Shown here: positions 753 to 13,896 of the stretch, one piece after another
How the letters are laid out: the number at the start of each line of letters is the position of its first letter
Numbering within the stretch: position 1 is the first letter of the stretch
Virus genome (UHGV): UHGV-1775856
Source: a virus
Length of the DNA: 15,357 nucleotides
Direction: 5' to 3' (one strand)
Translations under genes and position numbers: made by a program
Notes under the pieces: generated by a model
Database searches by the model: none
What the model saw: only the letters and a program-made list of their open reading frames with translations
What the model was told of the DNA's origin: nothing

Positions 753-793
753 GCTGTAAGCCGCGCCGTTCGTGGCCTGAAACGGGATCAACA

Positions 794-900
794 TTGACTA
801 TACGCGATTTTATGTTGACTGTGTGCGATTTTATGTTGACTGCACGCGATTTATTGTTGACTATACGCGACAGAAACGTTGACTGTACGCGATTTTAGAG
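794..900 (+). repeat. five direct iterons (core TTGACTRYRYGCGAT) at 21-22 bp spacing; RepA binding sites of the origin (incC-like)
   Basis: Copies start at 794, 815, 836, 857 and 879, spaced 21, 21, 21 and 22 bp (two helical turns), directly upstream of repA. Confidence 0.8.
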
Positions 901-973
901 CCTGAATATTCACAGCTGTTGATAACAGTCATCTAAATTAACGCCAGGCCGCGCCACACATGGAGAAACCACG

Positions 974-1858
974 ATGCCGGAAGAAAGTAAAGGCTTCCTT
1001 AGCGTTGAAGAAGTTGCAGGAAATACAGGAGAAATCCACAGCCTGAAGCCCAATAACAACAGCACTATACAACCCATAGCTTTGTTGCGCTTAGGTGTGT
1101 TTGTGCCAACCTTAAAATCTACCAATGTGGCGCTACGTCGCGGATCGTCAGTTACAACAAACACAACGAACGCAACCGAAGAACTATCAAGCCTCAAAAT
1201 TGTTGAGCAGGAAGGCTATGAGGGAATTGAAATTCATGGTCCACGCCTGGATATGGATACTGATTTTAAGGTGTGGGTGGGCATAACCTCCGCGTTGTTT
1301 GACTATGCTCCTGATGATGACGGCATAATCACCCTGCCATTCTCCGAGTTTGCCGATCGATGCGGCTATCCACGTAAGCGCCTTTCAAAGGCGTTCCGTA
1401 AAAGTATTGATGACTCTCTGACACGCATTCAGCAGACAGTTGTCAAATTCCGCTTCCCGGCGGCAAAAGGTCATCTCAATAACATTAACGTCAACTTGTT
1501 GGCATATAGCAGCCTGAATACCGAGCTTGATGTTATCGAGATCCAGCCGCAAAAACAGCTATCTGAACTTTACTATGTTGACTATAAGCGAATCCTGAAG
1601 CTGAAGATGCTGGATAAGCTCGGGCGCAAAGAGACGGCCAAGGTGCTGTATACATTCTTTGAGGCTCTACCCGCCAACCCGGCACCTGTCAGCATTGAGC
1701 GCCTTAGAGCAAGGCTTAATCTCAAATCATCCGTTAGCGTGCAAAATAGCGTTATCAGAAAAGCCATGAAAGATTTGGAAGCTATTGAATATCTTAAATT
1801 TTCAGAGATAAAAAACGGCAGAAAAATCGGCTTCCAGATCCATAAGCGCAATCCATAA
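974..1858 (+). CDS. repA: plasmid replication initiator RepA (P1/RepFIB-like, iteron-binding)
   Basis: 294-aa ORF flanked on both sides by iteron arrays. It contains blocks I recall as conserved in P1-type RepA (QPIALLRLGVFVP, GPRLDMDTDFKVW, C-terminal HKRNP), but the overall sequence and the iterons differ from the P1 19-bp iteron, so this is a divergent allele. Confidence 0.85.
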   Translation: MPEESKGFLSVEEVAGNTGEIHSLKPNNNSTIQPIALLRLGVFVPTLKSTNVALRRGSSVTTNTTNATEELSSLKIVEQEGYEGIEIHGPRLDMDTDFKVWVGITSALFDYAPDDDGIITLPFSEFADRCGYPRKRLSKAFRKSIDDSLTRIQQTVVKFRFPAAKGHLNNINVNLLAYSSLNTELDVIEIQPQKQLSELYYVDYKRILKLKMLDKLGRKETAKVLYTFFEALPANPAPVSIERLRARLNLKSSVSVQNSVIRKAMKDLEAIEYLKFSEIKNGRKIGFQIHKRNP

Positions 1859-1860
1859 TA

Positions 1861-2116
1861 TTGACTATATGCGATAGCGAGAAGTTGACTATAGGCGACA
1901 TTCGTTGACGCTGGTGGATTTTTGCTGGCGTCAATATTCTGCAAGTCGCTATTGAGATGGCTTTTAGGGTCATTTCATCGCGTATAGTCAACGTTTCTCC
2001 CGACAATATCTTACATAGTCGATCTTTGGTGGAGTTAAATCGACTACAGTCAACTTTTGACTGTAGTCACATCGCGCATAGTCAACTATTCAAATTAACC
2101 TTCGCGCATAGTCAAC
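1861..2116. repeat. second iteron field downstream of repA, with copies in both orientations (incA-like copy-control locus)
   Basis: Plus-oriented TTGACT cores at 1861, 1885, 1905 and about 2056; minus-oriented copies (seen as GCGCATAGTCAA or CGTATAGTCAACG) at about 1927, 1981, 2043, 2073 and 2103. Several form inverted pairs. Confidence 0.7.
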
Positions 2117-2150
2117 ATTTGCGCGGTTCTCATCAAGCAGTGGTATTGAT

Positions 2151-2960
2151 ATGCAAGAAGAGAAACAACACTACCTCTACGTTCTGGTGCCAGAGAACGG
2201 AGATACTTTTAAAATCGGCATTTCATGTGGTCCATTGGCACGGTTTAAAGGGCTACAAGTGAGTCCCGATTTTGCGCTTTCACGGGTCTATCGTGGTACA
2301 CGTTTGGCAATGGTTAATCTTGAGCGGGCTTTACACGCAACCTTTTTCCCCTGGAATGCGCCGTGGGAGAAAAGCGTCGGTGGCGGGCATACTGAATGGT
2401 TTACACGAGAGTGTCTTGATAAGGTTTTGGCTCATATCGAATATCTAAATGATATGTGGGGAGGGATTCTCGAGCGCATTAAGTCGAATGATTTACTTCA
2501 GCGTCCAGTAGATGCTGCTTGCTCTTTCGAAAAAGAGCTGGATGTTACTTCTATCGTGACTTTCAAAGATGACGCAGGAATGAGGGACGTGGCTTATGTC
2601 TCCATATCTGGCTATGAACCGGACGCGATCCGCGCTCAATGTGAATTGCTGAAAGCAATGTTTATGCTTCGGACTAAATATCCCTGGGATACAGGGCGGG
2701 TGTGCTTCCCTATGGAAGAGTTAACCGCCACCATTGATTCCCAGCTTTACCACGATAATCCAGAGAAGTTTTTTAGCCTTTTAGCCGGTAATGGGCTTAA
2801 CTGTGTGTCCGGGCTGGGGCGAAGTAGAATCCAACATGCCTCGCTCTTCGGTCCCTTCTTTTACGATCGACACGGGTACTTTGAGGCTGAACTTCCGGCG
2901 CTTACGCGTGCTATAGATACTATCGATTTCGAACGATTATTCGCTGCTCTTAGCAAATAA
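2151..2960 (+). CDS. T5orf172/GIY-YIG-like domain protein, 269 aa; N-terminal nuclease-like domain plus a C-terminal region of about 160 aa of unknown function
   Basis: N-terminus carries the T5orf172/MUG113 signature: YLYVL, KIGIS, R, LH..F, GGHTEWF, in the right order and spacing. The gene starts about 35 bp after the last iteron and ends at a strong terminator. It lies between the replication and partition modules, where P1 (from memory) has no gene. Confidence 0.6.
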   Translation: MQEEKQHYLYVLVPENGDTFKIGISCGPLARFKGLQVSPDFALSRVYRGTRLAMVNLERALHATFFPWNAPWEKSVGGGHTEWFTRECLDKVLAHIEYLNDMWGGILERIKSNDLLQRPVDAACSFEKELDVTSIVTFKDDAGMRDVAYVSISGYEPDAIRAQCELLKAMFMLRTKYPWDTGRVCFPMEELTATIDSQLYHDNPEKFFSLLAGNGLNCVSGLGRSRIQHASLFGPFFYDRHGYFEAELPALTRAIDTIDFERLFAALSK

Positions 2961-2965
2961 CACTG

Positions 2966-2990
2966 ATGCCCCTGAACGGGGCTTTTTTGT
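2966..2990 (+). terminator. rho-independent terminator after the T5orf172-like gene
   Basis: GCCCC (2968-2972), loop TGAAC, GGGGC (2978-2982), then TTTTTT. Confidence 0.7.
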
Positions 2991-3077
2991 GCCTTTCTTG
3001 TAACTCTCAATCGTGCAAAATGAACCAAACATGCAGAGAATGCTATGTACAAGCATCTACGCATACATTATTATTTT

Positions 3078-3113
3078 ATGCAGCATTTTTAATTAAATTC
3101 AAAAATACAGCAT
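3078..3113. promoter_or_regulatory. putative par operon promoter/operator: imperfect 13-bp inverted repeat in an AT-rich leader
   Basis: ATGCAGCATTTTT (3078-3090) and AAAAATACAGCAT (3101-3113) match 11 of 13 as inverted repeats, just upstream of the parA Shine-Dalgarno; ParA autoregulates at such a site in P1. Confidence 0.4.
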
Positions 3114-3128
3114 AAAGGATGACTTTCG

Positions 3129-4325
3129 ATGAGTGATTCCAGCCAGCTTCACAAGGTTGCTCAAAGAGCAAACAGAATGCTCAATGTTCTGACTGAACAA
3201 GTACAGTTGCAAAAGGATGAGCTACACGCGAACGAGTTTTACCAGGTCTATGCGAAAGCGGCACTGGCAAAATTGCCTCTACTGACTCGAGCGAACGTTG
3301 ACTATGCCGTAAGTGAAATGGAAGAAAAGGGTTATGTTTTCGATAAACGCCCTGCTGGCTCTTCAATGAAATATGCGATGTCAATTCAGAACATCATTGA
3401 CATATATGAACATCGCGGAGTGCCAAAATACCGGGATCGCTACAGCGAAGCGTATGTGATTTTCATCTCCAATCTTAAAGGCGGTGTGTCAAAAACTGTA
3501 TCGACGGTTTCTCTGGCGCATGCAATGCGTGCCCACCCTCATCTTCTGATGGAAGATTTAAGGATTCTGGTTATTGACCTTGATCCGCAATCTTCAGCAA
3601 CGATGTTTTTAAGCCATAAACACTCTATTGGTATCGTAAACGCAACATCTGCACAGGCTATGTTGCAGAATGTAAGCCGTGAAGAGCTGTTAGAGGAGTT
3701 TATTGTTCCTTCTGTTGTACCTGGGGTTGACGTTATGCCTGCGTCGATTGACGATGCCTTTATTGCATCCGATTGGAGAGAGCTGTGCAATGAGCATCTA
3801 CCGGGTCAGAACATCCATGCTGTCCTGAAAGAAAATGTGATTGATAAGCTGAAGAGCGATTATGACTTTATCCTCGTTGATAGTGGTCCTCACCTTGACG
3901 CCTTCCTGAAAAATGCTTTGGCCTCGGCCAATATACTGTTTACACCTCTGCCGCCAGCAACTGTCGATTTCCACTCATCGCTTAAATACGTTGCCCGCCT
4001 TCCTGAGTTGGTAAAACTCATTTCGGATGAAGGCTGCGAGTGCCAGCTTGCGACTAACATTGGTTTTATGTCCAAGTTGAGTAACAAGGCAGATCATAAG
4101 TATTGCCATAGCCTGGCTAAAGAAGTGTTCGGTGGGGATATGCTTGATGTCGTCCTCCCTCGCCTTGACGGTTTTGAACGCTGCGGCGAGTCTTTTGACA
4201 CTGTTATTTCAGCTAACCCGGCAACGTATGTTGGTAGTGCTGATGCATTGAAGAACGCGCGAATTGCCGCGGAAGATTTTGCTAAAGCAGTTTTTGACCG
4301 TATTGAATTTATCAGATCTAACTGA
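3129..4325 (+). CDS. parA: partition ATPase ParA (type Ia, with N-terminal DNA-binding extension)
   Basis: 398 aa; deviant Walker A KGGVSKT; length and sequence recognised as P1 ParA-like; followed 16 bp later by parB. Confidence 0.92.
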   Translation: MSDSSQLHKVAQRANRMLNVLTEQVQLQKDELHANEFYQVYAKAALAKLPLLTRANVDYAVSEMEEKGYVFDKRPAGSSMKYAMSIQNIIDIYEHRGVPKYRDRYSEAYVIFISNLKGGVSKTVSTVSLAHAMRAHPHLLMEDLRILVIDLDPQSSATMFLSHKHSIGIVNATSAQAMLQNVSREELLEEFIVPSVVPGVDVMPASIDDAFIASDWRELCNEHLPGQNIHAVLKENVIDKLKSDYDFILVDSGPHLDAFLKNALASANILFTPLPPATVDFHSSLKYVARLPELVKLISDEGCECQLATNIGFMSKLSNKADHKYCHSLAKEVFGGDMLDVVLPRLDGFERCGESFDTVISANPATYVGSADALKNARIAAEDFAKAVFDRIEFIRSN

Positions 4326-4341
4326 GGAGTAAGAAACCCCC

Positions 4342-5343
4342 ATGTCAAAGAAAAACAGACCAACAATTGGGCGAACCCTTAATCCTTCAATATTAAGCGG
4401 ATTTGATAGTTCTTCAGCCTCTGGCGATCGAGTCGAGCAGGTATTCAAGTTATCAACTGGTCGCCAGGCCACATTTATTGAAGAGGTAATACCTCCGAAC
4501 CAGGTAGAAAGCGATACCTTTGTTGATCAGCATAACAACGGGCGTGACCAGGCATCTCTTACGCCAAAATCATTAAAAAGTATCCGAAGCACTATTAAGC
4601 ATCAGCAATTTTACCCTGCAATAGGTGTTAGACGGGCTACAGGGAAAATTGAAATTTTGGATGGTTCCCGGCGTCGAGCTTCTGCCATCTTAGAGAACGT
4701 AGGGTTGCGGGTTTTAGTCACGGACCAGGAGATCAGCGTTCAGGAAGCGCAAAATTTAGCGAAAGACGTTCAGACAGCATTGCAGCACAGCATTCGAGAA
4801 ATAGGTCTGCGTTTGATGCGAATGAAAAATGATGGGATGAGTCAGAAGGATATTGCAGCCAAAGAAGGGCTGTCTCAGGCGAAGGTCACGCGTGCTCTCC
4901 AGGCAGCGAGTGCTCCGGAAGAATTAGTCGCCCTTTTCCCTGTTCAGTCGGAATTAACCTTTTCGGACTACAAAACGCTTTGTGCTGTTGGCGACGAAAT
5001 GGGGAACAAGAATTTAGAGTTTGATCAGCTTATTCAAAACATATCCCCGGAAATAAACGACATCTTATCCATTGAAGAAATGGCCGAAGATGAAGTTAAA
5101 AATAAAATCCTGCGCTTGATAACAAAGGAAGCCTCACTACTCACGGATAAAGGTTCTAAAGATAAGTCCGTAGTTACTGAATTATGGAAATTTGAGGACA
5201 AGGATCGCTTTGCAAGGAAGCGCGTGAAAGGCCGTGCATTTTCTTATGAGTTTAATCGACTTTCAAAAGAGCTACAGGAAGAACTCGACAGGATGATTGG
5301 GCATATCCTTAGAAAGAGCCTCGATAAAAAGCCGAAGCCTTAA
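4342..5343 (+). CDS. parB: partition centromere-binding protein ParB
   Basis: 333 aa; sequence recognised as P1 ParB-like; immediately followed by a parS-like site. Confidence 0.92.
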   Translation: MSKKNRPTIGRTLNPSILSGFDSSSASGDRVEQVFKLSTGRQATFIEEVIPPNQVESDTFVDQHNNGRDQASLTPKSLKSIRSTIKHQQFYPAIGVRRATGKIEILDGSRRRASAILENVGLRVLVTDQEISVQEAQNLAKDVQTALQHSIREIGLRLMRMKNDGMSQKDIAAKEGLSQAKVTRALQAASAPEELVALFPVQSELTFSDYKTLCAVGDEMGNKNLEFDQLIQNISPEINDILSIEEMAEDEVKNKILRLITKEASLLTDKGSKDKSVVTELWKFEDKDRFARKRVKGRAFSYEFNRLSKELQEELDRMIGHILRKSLDKKPKP

Positions 5344-5344
5344 A

Positions 5345-5432
5345 CTTTCGCCATTCAAATTTCACTATTAACCAACTGTTTTTAAAGTAAATCCATCTAA
5401 AATTTCAAGGTGAAATCGCCACGATTTCACCT
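5345..5432. other. parS: parS centromere: box A (ATTTCAC) and box B (TCGCCA) motifs flanking an AT-rich, IHF-site-like centre
   Basis: Box B TCGCCA at 5348-5353 and 5416-5421; box A ATTTCAC at 5359-5365 and 5424-5430, plus an inverted ATTTCA at 5411-5416; the arrangement matches published P1 parS as I recall it. Confidence 0.8.
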
Positions 5433-5488
5433 TGGATTTTACCTTCCTCCCCTACTCCCGAAAAAAATAAAAAAATTGCTTGTCACGA

Positions 5489-5517
5489 GAAAGTCAACAA
5501 GTGACTTTCAATAAAAT
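5489..5517 (+). promoter_or_regulatory. candidate promoter for the structural operon: perfect 8-bp inverted repeat GAAAGTCA-ACAAG-TGACTTTC followed by a -10-like ATAAAAT
   Basis: Arms at 5489-5496 and 5502-5509, then AATAAAAT at 5510-5517. P1 late promoters are reported to carry an inverted repeat centred near -22 plus a -10 element; I do not recall the exact consensus. Confidence 0.35.
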
Positions 5518-5568
5518 CTCTTCCGAAAAGGGATTCACACAAGTGCCTTGTGTTTAAGGAAGAGTAAA

Positions 5569-7275
5569 TTGAGTAACTTACGCGAATACCAGAATCGTAT
5601 TGCAGATATCGCAAAACGCTCTAAAGCTGTGCTTGGCTGGGCAAGCACTGCGCAGTTCGGTACTGATAACCAATTCATTAAAGATGATGCCGCGCGTGCC
5701 GCATCTATCCTTGAAGCTGCACGTAAAGACCCGGTTTTTGCGGGTATCTCTGATAATGCCACCGCTCAAATCGCTACAGCGTGGGCAAGTGCACTGGCTG
5801 ACTACGCCGCAGCACATAAATCTATGCCGCGTCCGGAAATTCTGGCCTCCTGCCACCAGACGCTGGAAAACTGCCTGATTGAGTCCACCCGCAATAGCAT
5901 GGATGCCACTAATAAAGCGATGCTGGAATCCGTCGCAGCAGAGATGATGAGCGTTTCTGACGGTGTTATGCGTCTGCCTTTATTCCTCGCGATGATCCTG
6001 CCTGTTCAGTTGGGGGCAGCTACCGCTGATGCGTGTACCTTCATTCCGGTTACGCGTGACCAGTCCGACATCTATGAAGTCTTTAACGTGGCAGGTTCCT
6101 CTTTTGGTTCTTATGCTGCTGGTGATGTTCTGGACATGCAATCCGTCGGTGTGTACAGCCAGTTACGCCGCCGCTATGTGCTGGTGGCAAGCTCCGATGG
6201 CACCAGCAAAACCGCAACCTTCAAGATGGAAGACTTCGAAGGCCAGAATGTACCAATCCGAAAAGGTCGCACTAATATCTACGTTAACCGTATTAAGTCT
6301 GTTGTTGATAACGGTTCCGGCAGCCTACTTCACTCGTTTACTAATGCTGCTGGTGAGCAAATCACTGTTACCTGCTCTCTGAACTACAACATTGGTCAGA
6401 TTGCCCTGTCGTTCTCCAAAGCGCCGGATAAAGGCACTGAGATCGCAATTGAGACGGAAATCAATATTGAAGCCGCTCCTGAGCTGATCCCGCTGATCAA
6501 CCACGAAATGAAGAAATACACCCTGTTCCCAAGCCAGTTCGTTATCGCGGCTGAGCACACGGTACAGGCGGCGTATGAAGCACAGCGTGAATTTGGTCTG
6601 GACCTGGGTTCCCTACAGTTCCGCACCCTGAAGGAATACCTGTCTCATGAACAGGATATGCTGCGTCTTCGCATCATGATCTGGCGTACTCTTGCGACCG
6701 ACACCTTTGACATCGCTCTGCCGGTTAACCAGTCCTTTGATGTATGGGCAACCATCATTCGTGGCAAATTCCAGACTGTATATCGCGACATTATTGAGCG
6801 CGTTAAATCTTCTGGTGCGATGGGGATGTTTGCTGGTGCTGATGCAGCATCTTTCTTCAAACAGTTGCCGAAGGATTTCTTCCAGCCAGCCGAAGACTAT
6901 ATCCAGACTCCGTATGTTCACTACATCGGTACCCTGTTCGGTAACGTGAAAGTGTACGAAGTACCTGCTGGTATTTGTAAGAACTTAACGACAGAGAACA
7001 TTCAGTTCAGCTCGATGGATGTGCTGTGCTACGTCCGTGATGAAAATCCGGGTAAAGCAGGCTTCGTGACTGGTGATGCTGTCCCGGCTATCCCGTTCCA
7101 GCATCCGACCACTCCGGCGCTGGTCAACCGTACCACACTGTGGGGTTCGGCTATCAACGATATGCACCCACGCAACGGCGCTGATTACTTCACTCGTGTA
7201 ACGCTGACAATGGCCAAAAAAGGCGGGCTTAACTTCATTAGCGGCGACACGATTGATGCCGGTGACTCTGAGTAA
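5569..7275 (+). CDS. large virion structural protein, possibly the major head protein (P1 gene 23 position); start assigned to TTG at 5569
   Basis: Long ORF (track 5548-7275) with no in-frame ATG near the 5' end; TTG at 5569 sits 6 nt after AAGGAAG. It is first in an operon with a sheath-like gene and is followed by a GC hairpin. The head assignment rests on position only. Confidence 0.7.
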   Translation: MSNLREYQNRIADIAKRSKAVLGWASTAQFGTDNQFIKDDAARAASILEAARKDPVFAGISDNATAQIATAWASALADYAAAHKSMPRPEILASCHQTLENCLIESTRNSMDATNKAMLESVAAEMMSVSDGVMRLPLFLAMILPVQLGAATADACTFIPVTRDQSDIYEVFNVAGSSFGSYAAGDVLDMQSVGVYSQLRRRYVLVASSDGTSKTATFKMEDFEGQNVPIRKGRTNIYVNRIKSVVDNGSGSLLHSFTNAAGEQITVTCSLNYNIGQIALSFSKAPDKGTEIAIETEINIEAAPELIPLINHEMKKYTLFPSQFVIAAEHTVQAAYEAQREFGLDLGSLQFRTLKEYLSHEQDMLRLRIMIWRTLATDTFDIALPVNQSFDVWATIIRGKFQTVYRDIIERVKSSGAMGMFAGADAASFFKQLPKDFFQPAEDYIQTPYVHYIGTLFGNVKVYEVPAGICKNLTTENIQFSSMDVLCYVRDENPGKAGFVTGDAVPAIPFQHPTTPALVNRTTLWGSAINDMHPRNGADYFTRVTLTMAKKGGLNFISGDTIDAGDSE

Positions 7276-7301
7276 TCAGGGGAAGTTCTCCGTTTAACAT
7301 A

Positions 7302-7320
7302 GCGCCCCCGTGCGGGGCGC
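7302..7320 (+). other. GC-rich hairpin with no U-tract between the 575-aa and 529-aa genes; possible partial terminator or mRNA stabiliser
   Basis: GCGCCCC (7302-7308), loop CGTGC, GGGGCGC (7314-7320). Confidence 0.35.
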
Positions 7321-7335
7321 ATAACAGGGAAAGTT

Positions 7336-8925
7336 ATGTCTCAATATTCAATTCAACAGTCATTAGGTAATGCATCCGGCGTCGCGGTTAGCCCGATCAA
7401 TGCCGATGCGACGTTATCTACCGGTGTTGCATTAAATAGCAGCTTGTGGGCTGGTATTGGCGTATTTGCGCGTGGCAAGCCGTTTACTGTTCTTGCGGTT
7501 ACTGAGTCCAATTACGAAGATGTTCTCGGCGAACCGCTGAAGCCGTCTTCCGGCTCACAGTTCGAACCAATTCGCCATGTATACGAAGCTATTCAGCAAA
7601 CATCTGGTTATGTTGTTCGCGCTGTTCCGGATGATGCGAAGTTCCCGATTATTATGTTCGATGAATCAGGCGAACCGGCTTACAGTGCGTTGCCATACGG
7701 TTCTGAAATTGAACTTGATAGTGGCGAAGCCTTTGCTATCTACGTTGATGATGGTGATCCGTGTATTTCACCTACCCGTGAGTTAACCATCGAAACGGCA
7801 ACAGCGGACAGCGCGGGTAATGAACGCTTCCTCTTAAAACTGACCCAGACGACTTCGCTCGGCGTGGTAACGACCCTGGAGACACACACTGTGTCTTTGG
7901 CGGAAGAAGCGAAAGATGACATGGGCCGCTTGTGTTATCTGCCTACGGCTCTGGAAGCCCGTTCTAAATATCTGCGCGCGGTTGTTAATGAAGAGCTGAT
8001 TTCGACAGCGAAAGTAACAAACAAAAAATCGTTGGCGTTCACTGGCGGTACCAACGGCGATCAGTCGAAAATCTCAACCGCTGCGTACCTGCGTGCGGTG
8101 AAAGTGCTGAACAATGCGCCGTACATGTACACCGTTGTTCTCGGCCTGGGGTGCTATGACAATGCGGCGATCACTGCGTTAGGTAATATCTGTTCTGATC
8201 GCCTGATTGATGGCTTCTTTGATGTCAAACCGACATTGACGTACACGGAAGCGATCTCTGCTGTTGAAGATACCGGTTTACTTGGTACCGATTATGTAAG
8301 CTGTGCTGTCTATCATTTCCCGTTCTCCTGCAAAGACAAATGGACCCAATCCCGCGTGGTCTTCGGTCTGTCTGGCGCGGCGTATGCGGCGAAAGCTCGT
8401 GGCGTCAAGAAAAACTCCGATGTCGGCGGTTGGCATTACTCACCGGCTGGTGAAGAACGTGCCGTCATAGCTCGTGCATCACTTCAGCCGCTGTATCCTG
8501 AAGACACCCCGGACGAAGAAGCTATGGTCAAGGGCCGACTCAATAAAGTATCTGTAGGTACTTCGGGCCAGATGATCATCGATGATGCTTTAACTTGCTG
8601 CACGCAGGACAACTATCTGCATTTCCAGCACGTCCCATCCCTGATGAACGCAATCAGCCGTTTCTTTGTCCAGTTAGCCCGACAGATGAAGCATAACCCG
8701 GACGGCATTACTGAGTCTGGCCTGACTAAAGGGATGACCAAACTTTTGGATCGCTTTGTCGCCTCCGGCGCTCTGGTGGCTCCTCGTGATCCTGATGCTG
8801 ACGGTACAGAACCGTATGTGCTGAAAGTTACGCAGGCGGAATTCGATAAATGGGAAGTAGTCTGGGCCTGCTGCCCGACTGGCGTAGCCCGTCGTATCCA
8901 GGGCGTACCGCTGCTTATTAAGTAA
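7336..8925 (+). CDS. contractile tail sheath-like protein
   Basis: 529 aa; AGGGAAAG Shine-Dalgarno. The segment AAYAAKARGVKKNSDVGGWHYSPAG resembles the recalled P2 FI sheath segment (ARALGLRAKIDQEQGWHKT), and the C-terminal region has sheath-like hydrophobic periodicity; the size fits a sheath subunit. Confidence 0.7.
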   Translation: MSQYSIQQSLGNASGVAVSPINADATLSTGVALNSSLWAGIGVFARGKPFTVLAVTESNYEDVLGEPLKPSSGSQFEPIRHVYEAIQQTSGYVVRAVPDDAKFPIIMFDESGEPAYSALPYGSEIELDSGEAFAIYVDDGDPCISPTRELTIETATADSAGNERFLLKLTQTTSLGVVTTLETHTVSLAEEAKDDMGRLCYLPTALEARSKYLRAVVNEELISTAKVTNKKSLAFTGGTNGDQSKISTAAYLRAVKVLNNAPYMYTVVLGLGCYDNAAITALGNICSDRLIDGFFDVKPTLTYTEAISAVEDTGLLGTDYVSCAVYHFPFSCKDKWTQSRVVFGLSGAAYAAKARGVKKNSDVGGWHYSPAGEERAVIARASLQPLYPEDTPDEEAMVKGRLNKVSVGTSGQMIIDDALTCCTQDNYLHFQHVPSLMNAISRFFVQLARQMKHNPDGITESGLTKGMTKLLDRFVASGALVAPRDPDADGTEPYVLKVTQAEFDKWEVVWACCPTGVARRIQGVPLLIK

Positions 8926-8934
8926 GGAAATACA

Positions 8935-9750
8935 ATGAGCAAAAACTTTTTTCAATCCGGGGCATTTTTGGGGAATGGACTGTCTCGTTTCGCTTTGAAC
9001 TCTGATCCTGTGCAGTTGATGGAGTCTGCCCGAGCAAGCGCCGAACCGACAACAGATCCGGTTATTAATAATAATCCGAAACCGGCGGCACAGACTAACG
9101 ATAACGTTCCATCTGCCACGGCTCCTGAGCAAATCCTGGAAGGGAAAGACGGTAAAGAATGGACCGTCGAACAGGCGCACCAGATGATTCTGGAAGCTGC
9201 AAATCGAAGTGCTATGCAGAATGCGTTGAGTGATGCGGCCGACGCCGTTTTCGCCTGGGCTGATAGCGGTGATCTGACTTTCGACTCCCTTGATGGTTTC
9301 GTTCAGGCTATCGCTGGTATCTCTGATGACGACGACTCCGAAGTTACAGAAGAACAGGACGATGCCTATAACGAAGCATGGGCAAATGTTGCTGACTTCC
9401 TCGCAGCATGCGGTGTAGATGATGACCTGATCGAAGCACTGGCTGACGATGAAGACGACGACGCAGCTGCTGATGTTGGTGCCTCTATCGCTGGTTTAGA
9501 TAGCGACGACCGTGACGAACTGGAAGCGGCGTTTGTTGTTGCTGGCACTTCTGATGAAATGCTGACTGAAGCATTTAAGAAGGTTGTTCGTAACGGTGAG
9601 ATCAAACTCATCCGTAAACGCCTGCGTAAAAAACGTCTGACTGCGGCTCAAAAATCGGCGCTGAAAAAAGCGCGTCGTAAAGCCCAGACCGGCGCGGCAA
9701 AACTGGCCCGCAAAAAGTCAATGAAACTGCGCCGTAAGCGCCTCGGCTAA
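8935..9750 (+). CDS. highly acidic protein with a Lys/Arg-rich C-terminal tail, function unknown
   Basis: 271 aa; Shine-Dalgarno AAGGAAA; Asp/Glu-rich central region (for example DDDDSEVTEEQDD and ADDEDDDAAAD), and a last ~50 aa that are almost all K/R/A. Confidence 0.7.
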   Translation: MSKNFFQSGAFLGNGLSRFALNSDPVQLMESARASAEPTTDPVINNNPKPAAQTNDNVPSATAPEQILEGKDGKEWTVEQAHQMILEAANRSAMQNALSDAADAVFAWADSGDLTFDSLDGFVQAIAGISDDDDSEVTEEQDDAYNEAWANVADFLAACGVDDDLIEALADDEDDDAAADVGASIAGLDSDDRDELEAAFVVAGTSDEMLTEAFKKVVRNGEIKLIRKRLRKKRLTAAQKSALKKARRKAQTGAAKLARKKSMKLRRKRLG

Positions 9751-9785
9751 AGGAGGAGGCCGGAGAACTCCGGCCTTTAACTTGA

Positions 9786-10367
9786 ATGGCACCTATACCT
9801 TATGGGGTTTACAGCCAGGCTGACGGTGTATCGCCATATCTGAAAGTTACTTTAACGAACTCTCAGTACCAGGTTACCGGATATATCAGCCAGGGAGCGG
9901 CAATGAACATGGCCCAGAATTGGGAAGCGCCGTTTACCGGTATGTCCATGGGATCTGTTGCTGGTGCCTTCAGTGGTTTTGCGCAGGTTGGTACTGAAAC
10001 AACGTCGGTTGCCCGTTGGAACAGCTTAATGGTTTGGGAAGGGGGAACACCGCCGACTTTCACGCTGCCAGTAACTTTCATCGCTTTGTTTGACCCATTC
10101 ACGGAGGTTTCAGGAGCTATCGCCGCATTGTCAGCGATGATTAGCCCGGAACTTAAAGATGCCAGTATTGGTGGTCGAATCCCGGAGCGTGTGACGCTAA
10201 ACATTGGTCGCCGGATCAACATCATTGATGTCGCTATCCAGGACATAAGTTTCGATCTCGATGCGCCCAGGGACAGCAATGGGCATTTCCTGAAAAACAC
10301 CGTCAACCTCCAGTTGACCGGTTCTTCGATATATAACAGCTCCGATATTGTTCGGGCGTTCCAGTAA
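9786..10367 (+). CDS. hypothetical protein in the tail/baseplate-associated module
   Basis: 193 aa, co-directional and tightly packed in the structural operon; the nearest Shine-Dalgarno (AGGAGGAGG, 9751-9759) is separated from the ATG by a hairpin. Confidence 0.65.
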   Translation: MAPIPYGVYSQADGVSPYLKVTLTNSQYQVTGYISQGAAMNMAQNWEAPFTGMSMGSVAGAFSGFAQVGTETTSVARWNSLMVWEGGTPPTFTLPVTFIALFDPFTEVSGAIAALSAMISPELKDASIGGRIPERVTLNIGRRINIIDVAIQDISFDLDAPRDSNGHFLKNTVNLQLTGSSIYNSSDIVRAFQ

Positions 10368-10378
10368 AAGGATTTTAT

Positions 10379-10888
10379 ATGGGGCACAATAATACTAAGG
10401 GAAACCGTAAATTTATTAAGGGCCGCTATACTGCCAACGCGGCCAAAGGCGAACGACTGGTATCTTCTGAATTCCAGCTCACTTTTGCAGGCCATGAAGA
10501 TATCAGCGTACTGGTTCGCACGTCGCAAATTCCTGAAATGACCCGCGAGGATGTGGAGGACTATGGTCCGAATGGTGTGAAGTTCAACCAGCACGGTCCA
10601 ATTCGAAACTCTGGGGAAATCCAGGTCCAGTGCGTGGAGACTATCGAAGGCGATATTCTTCAGTTCATTAAAGATCGCATTGCGGCGAAGGACTATGTTG
10701 ATATCACGATGGCTGCGACCCCTGAATCCAAATCTTCCGGGGTTAACGCTGTGACAAAAGCTGCTACAACAATTGAAATGTTGGACTGCAAAATCTACAG
10801 TGATGCAATCGACTTTAGTACCGAAGATGTGACTGCTGCTGTGCGCCCGTCACTTCGTATCGTCTACAACTGGATTGAGTGGGATTAA
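10379..10888 (+). CDS. hypothetical protein, possible tail tube or baseplate component
   Basis: 169 aa; AAGGA Shine-Dalgarno 6 nt before the ATG; last gene before a strong terminator; the size is typical of contractile-tail tube or baseplate subunits. Confidence 0.7.
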   Translation: MGHNNTKGNRKFIKGRYTANAAKGERLVSSEFQLTFAGHEDISVLVRTSQIPEMTREDVEDYGPNGVKFNQHGPIRNSGEIQVQCVETIEGDILQFIKDRIAAKDYVDITMAATPESKSSGVNAVTKAATTIEMLDCKIYSDAIDFSTEDVTAAVRPSLRIVYNWIEWD

Positions 10889-10906
10889 GAGTCATCCCTT
10901 GTATTT

Positions 10907-10931
10907 TAAAGCTCCTTCGGGAGCTTTTTTT
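10907..10931 (+). terminator. rho-independent terminator closing the structural operon
   Basis: AAAGCTCC (10908-10915), loop TTCG, GGAGCTTT, then a run of seven T. Confidence 0.75.
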
Positions 10932-10991
10932 ATAACTATTTTATATAAACATGCATCGATAACATTGTCTGGAGTTTTATGTTAGATTATT

Positions 10992-11008
10992 AATGTTCTA
11001 ATAAACTA
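10992..11008 (+). promoter_or_regulatory. C1-repressor-operator-like site upstream of the 210-aa gene
   Basis: AATGTTCTAATAAACTA matches the P1 C1 operator consensus ATTGCTCTAATAAATTT at 13 of 17 positions, including the CTAATAAA core, inside an AT-rich promoter-like region. Confidence 0.35.
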
Positions 11009-11059
11009 CAATTATTGAGGTAGATGTTTGTGCCTGTACTGTTAAAGGGGGACTCTAAA

Positions 11060-11656
11060 ATGGCTGTGATTCCAATGTCGTACTCCCCGGGTACTGTCGC
11101 TCGTCGATTTTCGATCCTGGACGGAGTTACCATCCAGGGTGTGCTTTACCAGGTTATATGGGATTCCAAAACCCCATTTGCAGCTGTAATAGAGGCTGCG
11201 CCTTCTATTATCGATGGTGATATGCGCCATAAGGTTGTCGCTACTCTTGAACTTCAACGTCGCCCGCAGCTTGAAGGCGTACTGGTAAGGAAGTTCTGGG
11301 AGGATAGCGATGTTGCCCAGATTGAAGGTATCGTGGTTGATGGAACCGTCCGGGATGTCGGTTTAGCTACTTTTGTTTACGAAACCGTAGCCTCAAAAGC
11401 TGGTGTTGTTTTGCTCAGTGATAATGAGCAATACGAAGGTGGAAAAGCTCTTTGGCAACACATCGCCCGTCGCTCTTCCGAGCTAAAAGTGTTTATCCTT
11501 GACACCGATGCCGCTCAGTATTACCCGTTTGACGGCGAACGTGTTTGCTATGACGGGGTAAGTATTCCTGAATCCGAGATATGGAGTGAACACCCAGATC
11601 GAAGTAAGCATGGGGTTGTTCTGGTCGCTGAATCCATAATTGGAAATGCGGCATAG
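11060..11656 (+). CDS. hypothetical protein, about 200 aa, function unknown; likely C1-controlled
   Basis: ORF track 11024-11656. ATG at 11060 has AAGGGGG about 9 nt upstream; the ATG at 11024 has GAGGT only 3 nt upstream. It has its own promoter region after the operon terminator. Confidence 0.65.
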   Translation: MAVIPMSYSPGTVARRFSILDGVTIQGVLYQVIWDSKTPFAAVIEAAPSIIDGDMRHKVVATLELQRRPQLEGVLVRKFWEDSDVAQIEGIVVDGTVRDVGLATFVYETVASKAGVVLLSDNEQYEGGKALWQHIARRSSELKVFILDTDAAQYYPFDGERVCYDGVSIPESEIWSEHPDRSKHGVVLVAESIIGNAA

Positions 11657-11838
11657 CAGTAAAAAATTCCTTGCTCCTTAAAAGGGGAGAGGGTTAATCT
11701 ACGTATGCTAAGCATAGAGATGGCCTCAGATTAATGTTAAGCGTCTTGCAGGACGCGTAATGTTATCTGGGGCGTTCTTCTATCTGCTTTTCGGGTAATG
11801 CCTGAAGCAGATAGCCTCAAGCACCCGTAACGATTGTA

Positions 11839-12165
11839 TCAATGTCTGGCTTTTTTTCTATAGAAATCACCAGGAAGGGTGAATATCCACATCAGAAGAA
11901 ATGTTGCAGCAAACATGATCCCTAATGGCCAGACCGCGCCAAAGAAAATCCATACTAAGATCTCCTCTGTTCGTTCTTTGCGGTCGATATCGACAAGCAT
12001 TCTTCGGCTGATCATGTATACACAGAAGCCAATACAAACATATCCTGCAAAAGCGATCGCTAACTGTAAAAAATCAGATTGCCTCTCCGACCTCAAACTG
12101 AAAACGCCAGGTGACTCCAGATTAGAGCAATCTATCACCCTCTGAATCCTGCCGGTATACCCCAT
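11839..12165 (-). CDS. possible small membrane protein with two hydrophobic helices, overlapping the 3' end of repL
   Basis: Two hydrophobic segments (LAIAFAGYVCIGFCVYMI and ILVWIFFGAVWPLGIMFAATFLLMWIF); no convincing Shine-Dalgarno at any candidate start (12165, 12015 or 12000); the position matches where P1 has the small rlf genes downstream of repL, by recollection. Confidence 0.3.
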   Translation of the reverse strand: MGYTGRIQRVIDCSNLESPGVFSLRSERQSDFLQLAIAFAGYVCIGFCVYMISRRMLVDIDRKERTEEILVWIFFGAVWPLGIMFAATFLLMWIFTLPGDFYRKKARH

Positions 12166-12980
12166 TGTTCGTTATCTTTATTTTTGGCTAAAACCGCATT
12201 AAGAGCTTCGTTTACCGTCATGCAATGCGGCAGATTATCGAAGTTTGATACACCGCCAATATCAGGAGAACGCTTGTTCTTCAGGTAAGCATATTTCCGC
12301 GCTGCCGCCTCTACTTTCTGCTTGAACTCATGTTTTTGAGCGCGTTTTTTGGATAACCGCAGATTGTCAGCCTTTGTTTTTGCCTCAGCGATCCATGAAG
12401 TCAATTTTTTGAGTCTGGTCGTTCCGGCACCGCCGGAAACTGATCTTTTTGTTTTTTTAACTTGTGACTTCTTATTCTTTATTGCCACGTCATCCTGACA
12501 GGGGGAGGGGGTATCATTTTGACATGGGGGTGTGGATAAAAAATTAAATAAAGCCAATGTCTTAGCGAGAACAGCTTTAACCTTGGTTGCCGCTGAAGAG
12601 ATCTTTAATTTGCTTTCAATCAGCGCATTTTTGGCTTGTTGTGCGAAGGCCAAAAAGGATGGTGTAAACCGGTACAGGTTAGCGCGACGTTCACGGTGAT
12701 CGCCGATAACAATCTCTACAGACAGAATTCCTTTGTTTACAGCTTCACGGAATGCACGAACGACGGTTGATTGGCTATAACCAGTTTCTGCCGCGATCAG
12801 GCGGTGAGGCTTGTGAATGAAGTATTCACTGGTTGTTGCCGCTAGATTTGCACATTGCGACAGGATATGCCCGGCGCTACGGGATAGACCGGAGTGTGTT
12901 ACAAAGCAGGCCAATTCATAGCCAGAAAAAGTAAAATCGCTCATCGTTATACAGCTCAGGAAAGTGACTTTAGCCAGCAT
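12135..12980 (-). CDS. repL: lytic replication protein RepL
   Basis: 281 aa, directly downstream of kilA in the same orientation and under a C1 operator, as in the P1 lytic replicon; the RepL length matches my recollection; the N-terminal third looks like a winged-helix domain. Confidence 0.8.
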   Translation of the reverse strand: MLAKVTFLSCITMSDFTFSGYELACFVTHSGLSRSAGHILSQCANLAATTSEYFIHKPHRLIAAETGYSQSTVVRAFREAVNKGILSVEIVIGDHRERRANLYRFTPSFLAFAQQAKNALIESKLKISSAATKVKAVLAKTLALFNFLSTPPCQNDTPSPCQDDVAIKNKKSQVKKTKRSVSGGAGTTRLKKLTSWIAEAKTKADNLRLSKKRAQKHEFKQKVEAAARKYAYLKNKRSPDIGGVSNFDNLPHCMTVNEALNAVLAKNKDNEQWGIPAGFRG

Positions 12981-13879: not shown

Positions 13880-13896
13880 AAATTTATTAGAGCAAA
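13880..13896 (-). promoter_or_regulatory. C1 repressor operator (Op53-like) in the kilA-repL promoter region
   Basis: The minus strand reads TTTGCTCTAATAAATTT, a 16 of 17 match to the P1 C1 operator consensus ATTGCTCTAATAAATTT, about 70 bp upstream of the kilA start. Three GATC sites lie just upstream at 13909-13931. Confidence 0.65.

Follow-up and report, generated by a model that had tools for sequence, protein, structure and literature searches.

Upstream of the structural genes in the 15,357-nt stretch of DNA analysed here (the window), a perfect inverted repeat, GAAAGTCA-ACAAG-TGACTTTC, is present at positions 5489-5509 (full sequence GAAAGTCAACAAGTGACTTTC), with 8-bp arms at 5489-5496 and 5502-5509 separated by a 5-nt spacer. 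A sequence-only reading of this locus had proposed that the repeat belongs to an activator-dependent late promoter of the type described for P1-like phages, and that this promoter switches on a head-sheath operon. The questions raised by the locus are whether such a promoter is present and whether the repeat is the element that defines it. The individual observations behind the proposal could be recovered: besides the repeat itself, a -10-like (A)TAAAAT follows at 5511/5512-5517, and the repeat centre (5499) would lie at about -25/-26, near the proposed 25 bp, if transcription starts near 5524-5525. The lack of an obvious -35 was also borne out. The hexamers located 16-18 bp upstream of the -10 (GAAAGT, AAAGTC and AGAAAG) share 0-1 of 6 positions with TTGACA, and a consensus -35/-10 scan found no sigma-70 promoter on the + strand in 5200-5700; a standard sigma-70 promoter at this site was rejected, as no -35/-10 pair with 16-18 bp spacing is present on that strand in this region.

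Positions 4800-6300 are 99.1-99.7% identical to phage P1 and P1-type phages (megablast), and a blastn search with the whole window aligned 3027-10930 without gaps to positions 61315-53412 of the P1 genome NC_005856, with 98% identity. Judged by these alignments, the window is a phage P1-type plasmid prophage. Since the match over 3027-10930 is gap-free, the window carries the partition genes parA (3129-4325) and parB (4342-5343) and the parS centromere (5348-5430), all assigned from the P1 match and annotation, followed on the + strand by the structural genes. These are gene 23 (5569-7275), annotated in P1 as encoding the major capsid protein precursor of 568 aa with a TTG start, gene 22 for the tail sheath (7336-8925, in a colinear gap-free match with P1 57006-55417), gene 21 for a baseplate or tail tube protein (8935-9750), the morphogenesis gene pmgG (9786-10367) and bplB, which encodes a putative baseplate or tail tube protein (10379-10888); the last four were located from the list of open reading frames and the P1 match. 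Downstream of bplB, a hairpin resembling an intrinsic terminator, AAAGCTCC-TTCG-GGAGCTTT, with a UUCG loop and followed by a T run (10908-10935, + strand), is likely the end of the operon. Two stretches of the window, 768-3026 and 10931-12120, have no blastn similarity to P1 NC_005856; the former is a plasmid replication region with an origin, a repA-like ORF (974-1858) and a 269-aa ORF (2151-2960), and the latter corresponds to the pmgF/rlfA/rlfB region. The P1 late operon and par genes are thus present, while other modules have been exchanged.

The site under study is annotated in NC_005856 as 'predicted late promoter LP23' (58825-58843, corresponding to window 5499-5517), and P7 bears the same annotation (AF503408, 61543-61561). 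With these entries in the reference genomes of P1 and P7, LP23 is already known, and it belongs to a well-characterised class; late promoters of the P1 type have been studied since the early 1990s. The 24-nt scoring window of LP23 (5494-5517, + strand), defined from the P1 annotation and the matrix score described below, reads TCAAC AAGTGACTT TCAA TAAAAT. It includes a 9-bp palindrome, AAGTGACTT (AAGT-G-ACTT; 5499-5507), which is annotated in P1 as the '-22 region of LP23' and presumed to be the Lpa binding site, and, 4 bp 3' of this palindrome, the hexamer TAAAAT (5512-5517, + strand), annotated as the minus_10_signal of LP23. The predicted transcription start is a G at 5525 (+ strand), 8 nt past the -10 and 22 nt from position 5503, the midpoint of the palindrome. 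The promoter lies 51 bp upstream of gene 23, which is followed by genes 22 and 21, pmgG and bplB on the same strand. Among the 11 late promoters of the P1 record, LP23 alone carries the label 'predicted', and the literature searched yielded neither a mapped start site nor an Lpa footprint or reporter data for this promoter.

To place LP23 among its counterparts, all 11 annotated P1 late promoters were extracted and aligned in register, the other ten being LPs, LPsit, LPdar, LPlyz, LP26, LPpmgL, LPpac, LPpro, LPmat and LPhot. All of them, LP23 included, combine a 9-bp palindrome centred near -22 with a TAnnnT-type -10 and lack a -35, and their consensus is t-n-(a/g)-A-C AAGTGACTT n4 TAnAAT. The LP23 9-mer agrees with this consensus at 9/9 positions and is identical to the LPmat element, and the 4-bp distance between palindrome and -10 (TCAA in LP23) is found in 10 of the 11 promoters, LP23 among them. 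LP23 was held out of a weight matrix derived from nine of the other late promoters; the training sites score 22-28.5 bits with this matrix, and LP23 scores 24.1 bits. It is the sole site above 11 bits in the window, the next best reaching 10.8 bits, and the window thus holds one late promoter. The best unannotated site across the P1 genome scores 18.8 bits with the same matrix. A 24-nt match of this kind to the P1 late-promoter consensus is far beyond chance.

Other assignments of the LP23 site were examined and discarded. A divergent promoter using the same palindrome, as in LP26/LPpmgL, was rejected, the minus strand having ACTTTC at the -10 position. No operator of the P1 C1 repressor (17-bp asymmetric ATTGCTCTAATAAATTT) is present at LP23, and within the window this operator is matched with three mismatches or fewer at one place only, 13880-13896 upstream of kilA, so that the site is ruled out as a C1 operator. 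Two features of the region are recorded here in their own right. Positions 5493-5499, which comprise the 5' flank and the first A of the 9-mer, resemble a -35 located only 12 bp from the -10; the same is seen at all P1 late promoters, the hexamers being TTGACA in LPpac, GTGACA in LPs, CTGACA in LPmat and TCAACA in both LP23 and LP26. Further upstream, an A-rich tract, GAAAAAAATAAAAAAATT, occupies 5450-5470, about -75 to -55 from the predicted start, and an A/T-rich tract is kept at this position in all relatives despite sequence divergence. It could be UP-element-like, or just correspond to the AT-rich spacer that the old P1 record K02380 mentions.

Two further late-promoter-like sites were observed. 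At 12962-12980 (+ strand), AAGTGACTT-TAGC-CAGCAT combines a perfect 9-mer and the right spacing with a weak -10 (8.7 bits on the full matrix); this site is located at the repL start, antisense into kilA, and its P1 equivalent (about 50744-50726, minus strand) has no promoter annotation. The other is the best unannotated P1 site mentioned above, ACAACAAGTGACTGGTGATAACCT, on the minus strand of NC_005856 at 76780-76803. It is located at the gene 25/7 junction and may thus be an internal late promoter.

These comparisons bear differently on the two halves of the original proposal. The assignment to a P1-like activator-dependent late promoter stands, whereas the element that defines such promoters is the 9-bp palindrome at about -22 and not the 8-5-8 inverted repeat, whose right arm covers the last six bases of the palindrome. 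LP23 differs from the other ten promoters in that its flanks extend the symmetry of the palindrome to the full repeat. The absence of the repeat upstream of other late operons had been named beforehand as the observation that would count against it, and absence is what was found: in the corresponding region of the other ten P1 late promoters, perfect repeats do not exceed 5 bp, and the 8-5-8 pattern occurs once in the P1 genome, at LP23, the next best match having at least four mismatches. The repeat was consequently rejected as a general late-promoter feature.

The same repeat could still be a functional operator peculiar to this promoter, either as an extended or second Lpa site or as the target of another regulator tuning LP23 in the P1/P7 lineage. 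It is perfect, is the only one exceeding 5 bp around any P1 late promoter, and brings a third AAGT half-site with its left arm (5491-5494). Three of its inner pairs follow from the palindrome core and the common TCAAC flank, and the match of the five further pairs has an estimated chance probability of about 1e-3 to 1e-2; yet about 2.3 perfect 8-bp short-loop inverted repeats are expected by chance in a window of this size, as computed from dinucleotide shuffles of the window (which actually contains ten, mostly terminators and protein-binding sites). Almost all sampled P1/P7-type contigs keep the repeat, but this retention weighs little because these sequences are at least 94% identical in this region. 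The more diverged relatives are more informative, and they, like the ten late promoters devoid of the repeat, argue against the operator.

The comparison set consisted of nine relatives and about 180 viral and metagenomic contigs. Within it, the P1/P7-type sequences keep the 8-5-8 repeat, some contigs of the Escherichia albertii type have TGACTTTT at its position, and the Salmonella Newport-type plasmids have TGACTTGC. In the Wandsworth and JK004 types, GAAA of the left arm is replaced by GCTT or GTTT, uncompensated on the other side, and single changes are tolerated in the right arm (TTTC to TTGC, TTTT or TTAC). Of the nine relatives, 3-4 have the outer A-T pairs disrupted, and none of the eight pairs (0/8) is altered on both sides in any of them. 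The repeat was thus also rejected as a conserved structure, being devoid of covariation and losing its outer pairs in diverged clades. Because the extended symmetry is uncompensated in these relatives and absent at the other late promoters, the bases that prolong it beyond the palindrome are, from these alignments, most likely incidental flanking bases of the P1/P7 lineage, and we consider a separate operator function improbable. The resemblance of the arms to ParB box A (CTTTCAA versus ATTTCAA/C, a 6/7 match) is at chance level for the region by our estimate, and this candidate was set aside.

The promoter elements proper show the opposite behaviour to that of the repeat. In P1 and in P7, the 24-nt LP23 sequence is identical to that of the window, with the same position between parS and gene 23 and the same distance to the TTG codon. 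In relatives with 77-81% identity in gp23 and a DNA identity of about 70% in this region, the flanks have diverged but GTCAACAAGTGACTT, the length of the 4-bp spacer and a -10 of sequence TAA(A/T)AT are all retained. The 9-bp palindrome does not vary among the P1, P7, Newport, Wandsworth and JK004 types.

A scan of genome contigs for more diverged relatives added one new clade, represented by Candidatus Pantoea alvi (contig PQJV01000018.1, about 1420-1450). There, GTCAAC ATATCACTT TCCA TAAAAT stands upstream of a homologue of gene 23 (77% identity) and retains the LP23 layout and spacing with a 9-mer altered at three positions; with ATATCACTT as the 9-mer in this clade, the element varies within the wider family. 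All LP23 relatives share the flanking GTCAAC without change, Pantoea alvi with its altered 9-mer among them. In the Serratia marcescens plasmid NZ_OW849140.1 (about 420-450), TCAAT AACTCACTT TCGT TAATAT (11 bits) precedes a remote homologue of the capsid gene product (44% identity), the spacing to the start codon (52 bp) being the same, and this similarity suggests a related but diverged -22 element. No such motif was found in D6 or in the relatives from Enterobacter and Vibrio. When metagenomes were scanned with a relaxed motif, only the same P1-type clades and chance matches were returned, and a plasmid search with the Pantoea sequence returned no close relatives.

According to statements in PMC3152322 and PMC1891329, the late activator Lpa binds a sequence centred at -22 and requires the host protein SspA. 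The lpa gene (gene 10) is located outside the 15.4-kb window, and that this element carries it is presumed from complete genomes that are nearly identical. Six phages are identical in sequence to the window over 5440-5900, and their lpa genes are 100% identical in MH422554, MH445380, MH445381, JL22 and phi456 and 99.3% identical in SJ46; lpa is also 100% identical in P1 and P7. The Cronobacter phage JK004, which retains the motif, encodes an lpa with 67% identity, and D6, whose lpa is 31% identical, has no such motif upstream of its capsid gene.

The expression of the operon could be followed in published RNA-seq data from a P1vir infection (Table S1 of PMC8201110), which give log fold changes per gene and are not resolved to 5' ends. 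Between 10 and 30 min, the value for gene 23 increases from 5.4 to 12.1 and that for gene 22 from 4.7 to 11.4, similarly to the known late genes pacA (3.6 and 10.7), R (3.8 and 11.2) and pmgC (3.1 and 10.9), whereas parB, adjacent upstream, is already at 9.2 at 10 min and reaches 11.4 at 30 min (PMC8201110). Genes 21, pmgG and bplB show a somewhat smaller rise between 10 and 30 min, of about 5 log units (PMC8201110). The late-gene-like profile of gene 23 against that of parB indicates that the kinetic class switches between these two genes.

An origin of gene 23 RNA mainly from elsewhere has to be weighed against these data. The P1 record predicts two sigma-70 promoters, 'P1 23' and 'P2 23', upstream of gene 23, the par operon is oriented the same way, and gene 23 RNA is detectable already at 10 min, so that these promoters or read-through from parA-parB might supply most of the transcript and leave the late-promoter-like motif unused. 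However, the spacer of 'P1 23' is 21 bp, and the scan of 5200-5700 described above found no sigma-70 promoter on the + strand. Read-through, for its part, is opposed by a perfect 13-bp hairpin followed by TTTT, formed by the inverted ParB boxes of parS (5404-5436) between parB and LP23, by the level of gene 23, which is about 3.8 log units under parB at 10 min and above it at 30 min in the manner of late genes, and by the prediction that the ribosome-binding site is largely paired in a read-through RNA (see below). We therefore regard this origin as very unlikely. The parS hairpin was flagged by the terminator scan and may also terminate par-operon transcription just 5' of LP23, which is consistent with the lower gene 23 level relative to parB at 10 min in the published RNA-seq.

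It is extremely improbable that the repeat acts in RNA, as a hairpin terminating or stabilising par-operon read-through transcripts: its 8-bp stem folds at -9.1 kcal/mol (z-score -4.2 versus shuffles), but no U run follows the stem (AAUAAAAUCUC), the terminator scan did not flag it, covariation is lacking, and the repeat is absent from late mRNA because it is located 5' of the predicted LP23 start. As an intrinsic (Rho-independent) terminator it was rejected, with 3/8 G-C pairs in the stem, AATAAAATCTC thereafter and a negative scan.

Taken with the LP23 annotation, the held-out score, the conservation in relatives, the co-occurrence with lpa and the RNA-seq kinetics, the view that the head-sheath operon is driven by a P1-type activator-dependent late promoter is well supported, and we assign 5494-5517 with high confidence to LP23, an Lpa-dependent late promoter carried here by a P1-type plasmid prophage. 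For LP23, the binding of Lpa, the requirement for SspA and the precise start are extrapolated from the literature on other P1 late promoters. By analogy with these, the early gene lpa would produce the activator Lpa during lytic growth, and Lpa would bind AAGTGACTT (5499-5507), the palindrome whose midpoint is some 22 bp ahead of the start. Together with SspA associated with the host RNA polymerase, it would let the sigma-70 polymerase use the -10 TAAAAT without a -35. Transcription would then start near 5525 and proceed through genes 23, 22 and 21, pmgG and bplB to the terminator at about 10908-10935, giving a predicted transcript of about 5.4 kb. If this reading of LP23 is true, changing the core AAGTGACTT to AACTGAGTT should abolish activity.

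The layout of LP23 can be compared with other systems in which an activator compensates for a poor promoter. The C protein of phage Mu is, like Lpa, a phage activator of morphogenetic operons at promoters with a poor or absent -35, but it binds from -30 to -55, whereas the P1 site is located between the -10 and the would-be -35 and needs SspA (PMC3152322). In Francisella, PigR and the RNA polymerase-bound MglA-SspA also recall the P1 system, as a DNA-bound activator is thought to act via an SspA-family protein; the organism, the activator and the DNA site all differ, so that the analogy with P1 would be mechanistic only. The Francisella MglA-SspA model was proposed, with P1 Lpa/SspA cited as precedent, before PigR was named (PMC1891329), and PigR is named in PMC4382096.

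Phages P2 and P4 also encode late activators of morphogenetic operons whose promoters have a poor or missing -35, Ogr and Delta, respectively.

The translation start of gene 23 also needed revision. The first gene of the operon had been read as a 575-aa protein starting at a TTG codon; a TTG start is correct, but the conserved and annotated codon is at 5569 (568 aa), not at 5548, where the longest open reading frame of the ORF list begins. TTG 5569 is invariant in 9/9 relatives and is preceded, at a distance of 4 nt, by the Shine-Dalgarno region AAGGAAGAG (5556-5564, + strand), which is conserved in relatives as AAGGAAGA or AAAGGACA. TTG 5548 is replaced by CTG in diverged clades, and a 1-nt indel between the two codons breaks the frame. 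The mature gp23 has SVAAEM as its N-terminus by Edman sequencing, the first 120 residues being removed in head maturation (PMC9024508). With the start at 5569, SVAAEM begins at residue 121, and the residue count agrees (120 removed and 448 mature residues make 568). N-terminal sequencing of the virion protein, which had been suggested as a check, cannot decide the start codon because these residues are removed.

The Shine-Dalgarno region has a second feature. CTCTTCC, located between the -10 and the predicted start (5518-5524, + strand), is perfectly complementary to GGAAGAG of the gene 23 Shine-Dalgarno (5558-5564) and is a candidate anti-Shine-Dalgarno sequence that would be present only in read-through RNA. 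Among the P1 late promoters, only LP23 and LPdar, upstream of the holin gene lydA, show a discriminator complementary to the ribosome-binding site of the first gene (shuffle p of about 0.002 for the 7-nt match of LP23 and about 0.05 for CCTCCT/AGGAGG of LPdar). In the Newport/JK004/Wandsworth lineage, the same columns contain GUCCU and AGGAC, so that the pairing is kept with three in-register two-sided changes, which probably go back to a single evolutionary event; Pantoea alvi has lost the pairing. In RNA starting at 5525, the predicted probability of an unpaired ribosome-binding site is 0.67-0.75, versus 0.22-0.27 in read-through RNA, and the corresponding values for JK004 are 0.74 versus 0.17-0.19. 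Single-sequence folding z-scores of the leader were not significant, its consensus fold on an automatic alignment was weak (-2.55 kcal/mol) and devoid of covariation, and the helix is visible only in the register of a longer alignment. From these models, it is possible, although we consider it doubtful, that only LP23-initiated RNA is efficiently translated and that RNA started upstream masks the gene 23 ribosome-binding site, a reading that depends on the start site inferred at 5525. The complementarity itself is possibly a new detail of this promoter.

The present analysis corrects the diagnostic signal of P1-type elements, which is TnAAC-AAGTGACTT-n4-TAnAAT and not a long inverted repeat, and the start of gene 23, which begins at a conserved TTG giving 568 aa. 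If the masking of the ribosome-binding site were true, it would safeguard the lysogen against making capsid protein, and the phage-plasmid would silence, at the level of translation, a structural operon located directly 3' of its constitutively transcribed partition operon.
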